From a virus (taxonomy: Duplodnaviria; Heunggongvirae; Uroviricota; Caudoviricetes): DNA of 8,854 nt. Below the pieces are notes generated by a model, which saw nothing but the letters and a program-made list of their open reading frames with translations, was not told where the DNA came from and searched no databases. The stretch spans positions 1 to 8,854 of IMG/VR virus record IMGVR_UViG_2778261069_000005; one strand, 5' to 3'. Of the stretch, positions 832 through 2,690 are shown piece by piece (within the stretch, counting starts at the first letter, position 1; each line of letters opens with the position of its first letter). The translations under genes and the position numbers were made by a program.

Positions 832-934
832 GTTTATCACACAGAGCAACTTTACCATTTTGATAAATAAAACGCAATGAAGATTTATCAAAATGCATAT
901 TTATCCATTTGCTAAATAGAGGGAGAATCGTGGG
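832..934. promoter_or_regulatory. OR-like divergent control region (PR toward cro, PRM toward cI) with repeated operator motifs
   Basis: 17-bp sites of the form TTTATC-N5-GATAAA at 851-867 (TTTACCATTTTGATAAA), 884-900 and 900-916, plus a half-site at 833-838. Candidate PR on the minus strand: -35 TTGCGT (872-877), 17-bp spacer, -10 TAAAGT (849-854), with the strongest operator in the spacer. Confidence 0.55.
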
Positions 935-1639
935 ATGGAAAACAAAGATATTCGCAAATCGAATCTGGCGTTTTTGCTAGATGAGCATAAAAAAATCGCG
1001 GGTAACACTAATGCAAGCTTTGCCGATAAGCTTGGAGTTAGCCCTTCTCAACTCACGCAAGTCTCCGGTGAAAAAAGCACTCGAAACATAGGGGATAAAC
1101 TAGCAAGAAAATTCGAAGCCGCACTTGGGTTACCTAATGGGTGGCTTGATTTGGTACATGATGTAACACCAATTGCATCATGCTCAGATTCTTTAACTTT
1201 TGTCGGTCAGGTAAGAAAAGGGTTAGTGCGCGTGGTTGGTGAGGCAATTCTTGGTGTTGATGGTGCCATCGAGATGACCGAAGAGCGCGATGGGTGGCTC
1301 AATATTTATAGCGATGATCCAGATGCCTTTGGTCTTCGTGTGAAAGGAGACAGCATGTGGCCCAGAATAAAATCAGGAGAATATGTACTCATTGAGCCTA
1401 ACACCAAAGTATTCCCGGGGGATGAGGTGTTTGTCAGAACTGTTGAAGGACACAACATGATCAAAGTTCTTGGCTATGACAGAGATGGAGAATACCAATT
1501 TACAAGCATCAACCAGGACCACAGGCCAATAACGTTGCCTTATCATCAAGTAGCAAAGGTGGAGTATGTGGCTGGTATTCTGAAGCAATCTCGCCATCTG
1601 GATGACATCGAGGCAAGGGAGTGGCTGAAAAGTTCGTGA
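935..1639 (+). CDS. cI: CI-family prophage repressor (N-terminal HTH, C-terminal S24/LexA-like autopeptidase domain)
   Basis: 234 aa. Shine-Dalgarno GGGAG 8 nt upstream. C-terminal domain has the GDSMWP serine motif and a downstream lysine (MIKVL), typical of the LexA/CI Ser-Lys dyad. Divergent from the cro-like gene across the operator region. Confidence 0.9.
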   Translation: MENKDIRKSNLAFLLDEHKKIAGNTNASFADKLGVSPSQLTQVSGEKSTRNIGDKLARKFEAALGLPNGWLDLVHDVTPIASCSDSLTFVGQVRKGLVRVVGEAILGVDGAIEMTEERDGWLNIYSDDPDAFGLRVKGDSMWPRIKSGEYVLIEPNTKVFPGDEVFVRTVEGHNMIKVLGYDRDGEYQFTSINQDHRPITLPYHQVAKVEYVAGILKQSRHLDDIEAREWLKSS

Positions 1640-1690
1640 CTTCATCGTCACATAGCTGGTAACCAGTGGCCTGAAGAGACGTTTGGGTGA
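1640..1690 (+). other. In-frame remnant of a lambda-type cI 3-prime end (encodes ...QWPEETFG then stop) directly after the cI stop codon
   Basis: Codons 1664-1690 read QWPEETFG-stop, matching the C-terminus of lambda CI as I recall it, and are in the same frame as the upstream cI ORF, which stops at 1637-1639. Confidence 0.4.
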
Positions 1691-1907
1691 TGTGATAGAG
1701 ATCATTATTCAATTCGATTGAGAAAAATCATCATAAGGTTTATATCCATTTATTAGATTTTATGTGTATAAATAGTTAAAAATGCACGATGTAGAGATAT
1801 TTGTGCTTAACATCAATTAATCATTGCTAAATCGTGCTTATTGTTCAGAAATCGCCCAAGTCATATTGAAAATCTGTTGGCGAACACCTATATAAGGAGT
1901 ATAGTTA

Positions 1908-2270
1908 GTGACCCAAAACGTATTGCCAATCAACAAGAGCTTGCATGACCGAGCTGTTGATGAATTTAATCGTCTGCATGGAACAATGATTGGCGAGATT
2001 AGTGCAATGCTGAAAACAGCTAAAGTAGCGCCATTGGTGGATCTTCGTAAGAAAGATCCTACCTTTTCGAACGTTGTCGCAGAATTACGGACATTCAGAG
2101 ACGTATGTAATGCTCTGCTCCCATACTTTCGTGTAGATAAGACCAGCGAAATCGCTGTCATCGATAAGTTACTTATACTGGCTAATGACCTGGCTCAAGC
2201 CATCGATGCTGACGATCCTGACGCATTGTGCGCAGCAATAGCAGCCCTTGATGTTGAGCCTTACATTTAA
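1908..2270 (+). CDS. Hypothetical protein, 120 aa, acidic and probably alpha-helical, GTG start; first gene of a moron downstream of cI
   Basis: ORF with Shine-Dalgarno AAGGAG 8 nt upstream of GTG at 1908. Preceded by a roughly 215-bp very AT-rich spacer. No similarity to lambda RexA or any protein I recognise. Confidence 0.6.
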   Translation: MTQNVLPINKSLHDRAVDEFNRLHGTMIGEISAMLKTAKVAPLVDLRKKDPTFSNVVAELRTFRDVCNALLPYFRVDKTSEIAVIDKLLILANDLAQAIDADDPDALCAAIAALDVEPYI

Positions 2271-2285
2271 ACGAGGGGAAAAAAA

Positions 2286-2414
2286 ATGACTAAAGCGTTT
2301 GACTATACTGCCGTTAGTAAGCTTTTGGCTGAAATGCGCGGATGTGTAGAGCGCGTTCAAAATCTACGCCGCGACTTTGAAGCTCACATCAATCATTCAC
2401 AAAAAGCGGCTTGA
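2286..2414 (+). CDS. Hypothetical small protein, 42 aa (MTKAFDYTAVSKLLAEMRGCVERVQNLRRDFEAHINHSQKAA)
   Basis: ATG at 2286, 15 nt after the stop of the 120-aa ORF, with a G-rich ribosome-binding site (GAGGGG) upstream. A strong terminator follows 20 nt downstream. Below the 60-aa cutoff of the supplied ORF track. Confidence 0.4.
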   Translation: MTKAFDYTAVSKLLAEMRGCVERVQNLRRDFEAHINHSQKAA

Positions 2415-2433
2415 TACTTAAGTTAGATGACAG

Positions 2434-2461
2434 AACCCGGCCTCAGCGCCGGGTTTTCTTT
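2434..2461 (+). terminator. Intrinsic terminator closing the cI-moron transcription unit
   Basis: AACCCGGC / GCCGGGTT stem (2434-2455) with a short loop, followed by TTTTCTTT. Confidence 0.7.
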
Positions 2462-2642
2462 GCCTCACGATCCCCACACCTAATAACACCTTAACCAATT
2501 GTATTTATTGAAAAATTGATAGATACAACTTTCTAAACCACGAAATTCTGATCCCCCTCAAGTCTCTTCATTCCTTCTGATAAATTCCCGCAATCAAATA
2601 AAAAACCATAATAATCAACAGGATATTTGAAAACCCAAACAA

Positions 2643-2690
2643 TTTATCATTTTGCTATTGTCATTAGTTTATCATTTCGATAAAGTCAAC
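2643..2690 (+). promoter_or_regulatory. OL/PL-like region: leftward early promoter with overlapping operator sites
   Basis: Candidate PL: -35 TTGTCA (2658-2663), 17-bp spacer, -10 TAAAGT (2681-2686). Operator-like 17-mers TTTATCATTTCGATAAA (2668-2684) and TTTATCATTTTGCTATT (2643-2659) share the motif seen in the OR region. Confidence 0.5.

Follow-up and report, generated by a model that had tools for sequence, protein, structure and literature searches.

The DNA analyzed here, positions 1 to 8,854 of the IMG/VR virus record IMGVR_UViG_2778261069_000005 and referred to below as the window (8.85 kb in all), corresponds to the early region of a lambdoid Escherichia coli prophage, as judged from its list of open reading frames (ORFs) and from Pfam and PHROG matches. 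The cro and cI genes diverge from a 113-bp spacer (the OR region) containing four related sites, and a second operator cluster (OL) overlaps the PL promoter upstream of N, with OL1 and OL2 lying over its -35 TTGTCA and -10 TAAAGT. The leftward direction of lambda corresponds to the plus strand of the window; therefore, PR is placed on the minus strand, reading out of the cro-cI spacer, and PL on the plus strand. Downstream of N, the window carries DUF2528, cIII/kil, gam, bet, exo, and other genes (coordinates of the features discussed are given in Table 1). Considered as a whole, the locus is very probably best explained as a repressor/operator switch whose immunity module is that of the Shiga toxin (Stx) phage H-19B. 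The operator model itself is already known, these repeats being part of published and annotated H-19B knowledge, and what is added here is only modestly new: a cross-genus consensus and spacing of the operators, a likely mis-registration of OR2, a lineage-specific site OR0, and a prediction for the PRM promoter.

Table 1. Genes, promoters, and operator sites of the immunity region, with their positions in the window
Feature	Position	Strand	Sequence or elements	Basis and remarks
cII	150-449	minus		ORF list
cro, 77 amino acids, first gene of the PR transcript	588-821	minus		ORF list; 75/77 identical to H-19B Cro; PHROG transcriptional repressor match
OR0, fourth, weak	833-849		TTTATCACACAGAGCAA	'OR0 repressor binding site' in GQ499358.1
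PR	849-877	minus	-35 TTGCGT (877-872), 17-bp spacer, -10 TAAAGT (854-849)	Read from sequence
OR1	851-867		TTTACCATTTTGATAAA	Matrix score 20.6; overlaps PR spacer and first 4 nt of -10; annotated OR1 in GQ499358.1
OR2 (favored register)	884-900		TTTATCAAAATGCATAT	Matrix score 15.7
OR3	900-916		TTTATCCATTTGCTAAA	Matrix score 18.0; annotated OR3 in GQ499358.1; base 900 common to OR2
Predicted PRM	900-935	plus	-35 TTTATC (900-905), -10 GAGAAT (923-928), start ~A935	Prediction only; cI mRNA would be leaderless
Alternative -10 of PRM	910-918	plus	Extended TGcTAAATA	
cI repressor, 234 amino acids	935-1639	plus	Predicted N-terminal helix-turn-helix (HTH) and C-terminal S24 self-cleaving domain	233/234 identical to H-19B cI; Pfam; PHROG repressor families
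Two small ORFs	1908-2414	plus		ORF list
OL3, degenerate	2611-2627		ATAATCAACAGGATATT	'OL3 repressor binding site' in GQ499358.1
OL2	2643-2659		TTTATCATTTTGCTATT	Top matrix score, 22.2; last 2 nt overlap PL -35; annotated OL2 in GQ499358.1
PL	2658-2693	plus	-35 TTGTCA (2658-2663), 17 bp, -10 TAAAGT (2681-2686), predicted start A2693	Called by consensus scan
OL1	2668-2684		TTTATCATTTCGATAAA	Matrix score 21.6; in PL spacer and -10; annotated OL1 in GQ499358.1
N antiterminator gene, first gene of the PL transcript	2877-3149	plus		Pfam N_peptide, 3.4e-32

Repeats in the control regions and their agreement with H-19B

The initial annotation proposed at least six copies of a 17-bp motif, TTTATC-N5-GATAAA, in the two control regions. 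Copies do occur at 833, 851, 884, 900, 2643, and 2668, but only five of them are strong matches, the exception being 833-849, which is essentially a single good half-site. The copy at 2668-2684 is a perfect palindrome with no mismatch to the motif, that at 851-867 has one mismatch, and that at 884-900 departs from the strict palindrome by four. With up to three mismatches allowed, the motif was found 13 times against 5.4 expected, a count that none of 200 shuffles reached, and TTTATC occurred 22 times against 6 expected. The motif search of both regions that had been suggested as a check pointed the same way, as GATAAA/TTTATC headed an unbiased hexamer count (7 observed in OR and OL together, 0.5 expected), and these counts were reached in none of 5000 local first-order Markov simulations of either region. 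Individual sites were scored with a weight matrix built exclusively from sites in distant relatives, namely prophages of Pantoea and Sodalis and the locus L052, whose repressor is 73% identical. The five best sites of the whole window under this matrix are those at 2643, 2668, 851, 900, and 884, with scores of 15.7-22.2, for which 0.05-0.12 matches would be expected. A seventh copy, considered at 2568-2584 (TCATTCCTTCTGATAAA), was rejected: it scores 3.9, which is chance level, and is not conserved; H-19B has TTTATC there 3 bp out of register, and L041-type variants carry neither half-site.

The control regions are AT-rich, with a GC (guanine plus cytosine) content of 35% in OR compared with 46% window-wide, and the motif superficially resembles Fur and DnaA boxes. 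Both points count toward an alternative in which the repeats are sites for host DNA-binding proteins (Fur-box-like GATAAT arrays or DnaA-box-like TTATCCA) or plain AT-rich promoter sequence. However, the simulations of local composition never reached the observed counts, GenBank annotates the sites as repressor binding sites, and the exchange of repressor domains described in the next section also speaks against this alternative, which appears extremely improbable.

Comparison of the encoded proteins with those of known phages showed that cI is identical to the H-19B repressor at all but one residue (N123K, in the C-terminal domain) and Cro to its H-19B counterpart at all but two. The control-region DNA is about 95% identical to that of H-19B-type Stx phages, among them H-19B, ST2-8624, BP-4795, and many Stx1a phages. 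These operators and those of lambda have unrelated sequences (TTTATC-N5-GATAAA in the window, TATCACCGCCAGTGGTA-type in lambda), and the immunity is therefore different from that of lambda, as the initial annotation had stated. The operators of H-19B were reportedly described by Shi and Friedman in 2001. GenBank record GQ499358.1, the immunity region of ST2-8624, labeled 'similar to bacteriophage H19-B', annotates OL1, OL2, OL3, OR3, OR2, OR1, and OR0 as repressor binding sites, and on the window all of them coincide with the sites in Table 1 except OR2. Record KU238070 annotates oR1-oR3 with slightly shifted borders. In addition, one sentence of a review citing Shi and Friedman 2001 gives four operator sites for the OR of H-19B (PMC8065619). 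Full-text literature searches for the operator strings and for 'OR0' returned no match, and the papers on ST2-8624 and oxyR gave no operator detail.

The H-19B group (H-19B, AF034975; common to ST2-8624, BP-4795, and many Stx1a/Stx2a phages) shares with the window the order cII-cro-OR-cI...OL-N and the -10 hexamers TAAAGT. Comparison with the operators of known immunity groups led to the annotated sites of the H-19B type. Relative to GQ499358.1, no base differs in OR1, OR3, or OL2, a single base differs in OR0 and in OL1, and three differ in OL3. The 118 nt upstream of cI contain 12 substitutions relative to the group, mostly between sites and in the spacer and right half of OR2. Other differences are the PL -35 (TTGTCA in the window, TTGCCA in the group), the N allele, and the lack of stx genes in the window, where the segment is bounded by IS629 ends.

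The two best palindromic copies, 851-867 and 2668-2684, lie as initially proposed in the spacer and -10 of promoter-like sequences at PR and PL. The register of PR and OR1 is that of lambda, running from the -35 through 4 nt and the 17-bp operator to the 2 nt that complete the -10, and PL with OL1 matches lambda PL column for column, with 4 nt between the -35 and the operator and the -10 opening with the final 4 nt of the operator. The TTGC and TAAA(G/C)T of PR are conserved in relatives. The PL leader ATCAGCAGGACGC is also conserved and aligns with that of lambda. In lambda, the PL transcript starts at the aligned leader A, and the alignment would place the start of PL at A2693. The identical -10 hexamers of the two promoters, listed initially as a feature in their own right, are indeed both TAAAGT, but they are not independent of the operators: the hexamer begins with the four outer operator bases TAAA, followed by GT, and the identity arises because O1 overlaps the -10. 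At this position, TAAACT or TAAATT is found in relatives.

Variation among relatives and exchange of repressor domains

Variation was assessed in a close set of 49 IMG/VR loci with the same repressor, comprising 20 distinct OR and 21 distinct OL sequences. In the cro-cI intergenic DNA, 22 of 113 positions vary, compared with 2 of 128 in the flanking coding DNA, and most of the changes affect the DNA separating the operators, the spacer of OR2, or the OR0 right half. Variable positions avoid the good half-sites (2/36, versus 20/77 elsewhere in the intergenic DNA; Fisher p=0.007, 20 OR variants). OR1 is invariant apart from one spacer change, and OR3 shows one singleton change. At OL, the half-sites of OL1 are invariant and its spacer takes four forms; OL2 is invariant and is identical in L052. 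The high intergenic variation may reflect relaxed constraint or a tuning of switch strength. This OR is carried by about 4% of complete E. coli genomes (215/5426).

A distant set consisted of L052, three Pantoea species, and one Sodalis, the last four with N-terminal domains (NTDs) 53-63% identical to that of the window repressor and with different C-terminal domains (CTDs); a search of genome contigs with the cI NTD had returned four loci. The layout in these relatives is OR1, about 33 bp, OR2, 16 bp, OR3 on one side and OL1, 25 bp, OL2, 33 bp, OL3 on the other, with differing spacers; both half-sites are altered in a coordinated manner in Pantoea and Sodalis, to TTTAGC/GCTAAA. Among the loci with the same NTD, sites are present in 49 of 49 and all five in 46 of 49. 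In contrast, 29 of the 30 loci sharing the same CTD with an unrelated NTD carry no such site and have a different OR. The sites are thus present with the NTD and gone with another NTD, so that the motif goes with the DNA-binding domain or, more strictly speaking, with the immunity module. Host-protein sites or AT-rich promoter sequence do not fit this pattern, as the repeats vanish when the NTD and cro are replaced with CTD and host unchanged, and persist, with the shift to TTTAGC/GCTAAA, in Pantoea and Sodalis with the same NTD family. Together with the GQ499358.1 annotation, the layout in relatives, and the lambda register, this covariation supports the identification of the motif copies as repressor operators, in line with the model initially put forward.

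The two kinds of exchange also bear on the architecture of the repressor. The 30 IMG/VR loci with an unrelated NTD (L053-L082) have a CTD 94% identical from residue 81 onward and an OR with GTAC-N5-GTAC-like repeats, and in the Pantoea and Sodalis prophages (L084-L087) the same NTD family is joined to a different S24 CTD. The domain junction is located near residue 80, and the domains are shuffled in nature. In the window protein, the S24 domain is matched by Pfam Peptidase_S24 at 3.8e-16, and PHROG repressor families cover residues 1-78.

Operator spacing and the register of OR2

OR2 lies most likely at 884-900, as judged by conservation and matrix score, with one base pair common to OR3. With the relatives-trained matrix, this 17-mer scores +15.7 versus -18 for 876-892, and E. 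coli, L052, Pantoea, and Sodalis all share its pattern TTTA.C....TG..TAT without change, whereas conservation is absent from the 8 nt on the left. GenBank places OR2 elsewhere, at positions corresponding to 876-892 (GQ499358.1) or 879-895 (KU238070) of the window. The operator coordinates of KU238070, which are shifted by 2-5 nt from the dyads, were set aside as a standard. With OR2 in the favored register, successive centers are 18, 33, and 16 bp apart in OR and 25 and 32 bp apart in OL, whereas in lambda the distance is 23-24 bp throughout.

The consensus promoter scan called no plus-strand promoter in OR. A GA..AT hexamer (GAGAAT, 923-928), separated by 6 nt from the cI ATG downstream and by 17 bp from the TTTATC at 900-905 upstream, is kept in 7 of 7 aligned relatives, which suggests a PRM transcript that would be leaderless from A935 and would place the center of OR2 at -43, compared with -42 in lambda. 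A more far-reaching reading, to which we give a probability just short of even, combines OR2 at 884-900, at -43 of a leaderless PRM, with an uneven geometry shared across genera (OR1-33-OR2-16-OR3 and OL1-25-OL2-32/33-OL3), mis-registered OR2 annotations, a cooperativity unlike the evenly spaced pairwise scheme of lambda, and OR0 as a recent addition in the E. coli lineage.

A lambda-like geometry is also possible, with a probability clearly below even. The operators would be the same, with OR2 at 876-892 and its center 25 and 24 bp from those of OR1 and OR3, and PRM would use the extended -10 TGcTAAATA (910-918) with a start at about 925, placing OR3, OR2, and OR1 at approximately -17, -41, and -66, nearly as in lambda (-19, -42, and -66). 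The OR1-OR2 spacing of 25 bp would equal that of OL1 and OL2, and the GQ499358.1 annotation, which places OR2 there, may reflect experimental data of Shi and Friedman 2001. However, the conserved TTTATC is off the half-site position in 876-892, the 17-mer with the strongly negative score, and its left 8 nt vary both among E. coli variants and across genera, apart from the bases of the PR -35, with TG..TAT invariant to the right. Furthermore, the two GenBank records conflict on the position of this site.

The weakest members of the array are OR0 and OL3. OR0 is flanked by the PR -10 and the cro ribosome-binding site and spans the predicted PR start (about G842). Its matrix score of 6.1 is at chance level, its right half varies among the close variants, and it is missing from L052, Pantoea, and Sodalis; OL3 scores only 1-2, also chance level. 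These observations would fit a switch in which only five sites work (OR1-3 and OL1-2), with OR0 and OL3 as non-functional relics or chance half-sites. This is rather unlikely, given that both are annotated repressor binding sites in GQ499358.1 and that four OR operators are reported for H-19B in the review sentence mentioned above. In addition, the TTTATC left half of OR0 is kept in 19 of 20 OR variants, and OL3 has conserved outer bases with a variable spacer and is placed as the third site of relatives, in which good motif copies occur about 33 bp upstream of OL2 (32 bp in the window). OR0, retained here as an operator because of the annotation and the review sentence, seems to be a peculiarity of the E. 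coli H-19B lineage.

In the model that we infer for binding, order of occupancy, cooperativity, Cro binding, transcript starts, and PRM, a cI dimer would bind 17-bp sites with the consensus TTTA(T/G/C)C-N5-G(A/C)TAAA. OR1 would cover the spacer and the first four -10 bases of PR, which reads leftward into cro, with OR2 (most likely 884-900) and OR3 (900-916) upstream, toward cI, and the weak OR0 would cover the PR start. At the other control region, OL1 would lie over the spacer and -10 of the rightward promoter PL, from which N is transcribed, OL2 would touch the -35, and the degenerate OL3 would lie at 2611-2627. Occupied O1 and O2 would block RNA polymerase and so confer immunity, and RecA-stimulated self-cleavage of cI would free PR and PL. 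By analogy with lambda, Cro may use the same sites, and OR2 at -43 could serve as the activator site for the predicted PRM. The model draws on the enrichment of the motif, its conservation, its covariation with the NTD, the identity with H-19B, and the lambda register.

Besides the chance-level scores of OR0 and OL3 and the GenBank positions of OR2, several points weigh against this interpretation. Its support comes from sequence comparison, and the site definitions of Shi and Friedman 2001 are taken from GenBank annotation and one review sentence. Because the immunity module is swapped as a unit, covariation with the NTD does not allow cI and Cro to be told apart. With only 3 of 6 positions matching the consensus, the -35 of PR is weak, which is why the consensus scan did not call PR. 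The HTH_3 match of cI is sub-threshold (E=0.004, 17.6 bits, curated cut-off 23), and a search of PDB sequences for relatives of cI gave spurious pseudoazurin matches only and no solved close relative; a Pfam scan of Cro gave no match. With regard to the HTH, a survey of Stx-phage CI proteins describes one clade that 'lacks the HTH domain' per Pfam (PMC8951638); this clade could be the present cI type, and the missing domain an artifact of Pfam sensitivity.

Comparison with other switches and neighboring features

The switch resembles that of lambda in its divergent cI and cro, its 17-bp dyad operators, and its S24-domain repressor, and differs, apart from operator sequence and spacing, in the fourth site OR0 located downstream of the PR -10. 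Another phage for comparison is the Stx2 phage 933W, whose operator and early promoter region was reportedly described by Tyler et al. in 2004 (Koudelka laboratory). According to reviews, including the one cited above, 933W likewise has a lambdoid Stx-phage switch with operators for a cI-type repressor at OR and OL (PMC8065619). However, the 933W repressor and operators are different, and three OR and only two OL sites are reported for 933W (PMC8065619), compared with four OR sites and two strong plus one degenerate OL sites in the window. Assigned to the H-19B group, the prophage is predicted to have a switch inducible through RecA and to confer superinfection immunity to many Stx1a/Stx2a phages. 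The cross-genus comparison provides an experiment-free definition of the operator consensus, and the probable mis-registration of OR2 in databases would matter for the design of operator mutants and for models of Stx1 phage induction; the practical value is small.

Beyond the operators, similarity to H-19B ends about 12 nt past the conserved PL leader, and a different N allele follows from about position 2705 onward. A nutL-like element is found here, with a boxA-like GCTCTTTAA at 2733-2741 and a boxB-like hairpin TGGCTGAAAAGCCA at 2765-2778 that aligns with boxB of lambda and H-19B; a second hairpin, GTCGAACACTCGAC, lies nearby at 2747-2760.

The interval between cI and OL (1640-2460) is an AT-rich insert, with 33% GC in 1640-1907. 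It has a sigma-70-like promoter of its own at 1877-1905 (TTGGCG, 17 bp, TATAGT; consensus scan), followed by two ORFs of 120 amino acids (phrog_13858) and 42 amino acids (phrog_12503), to which PHROG assigns no function, and, as read by eye, a GC-rich hairpin with a T-run at approximately 2435-2460. In place of these two ORFs, a HigB-family toxin and an HTH regulator are found in BP-4795 and Stx2a_WGPS9, both phages of the H-19B type, and ST2-8624 carries an HTH ORF and a hypothetical ORF. The insert resembles a 'moron' slot with exchangeable content, situated at the position of rex.

The ends of the window (4-127 and 8731-8854) form a perfect inverted repeat of 124 nt that matches the end of the IS3-family element IS629 at 100% identity; Shigella plasmids carry this element under the annotation 'IS629 ORF2'. 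The segment thus represents either a prophage remnant flanked by inverted IS629 copies or a contig ending in repeats. The IS629 end adjoins cII, 22 nt past its stop codon, and the O/P replication genes, which follow cII in related prophages, are missing.

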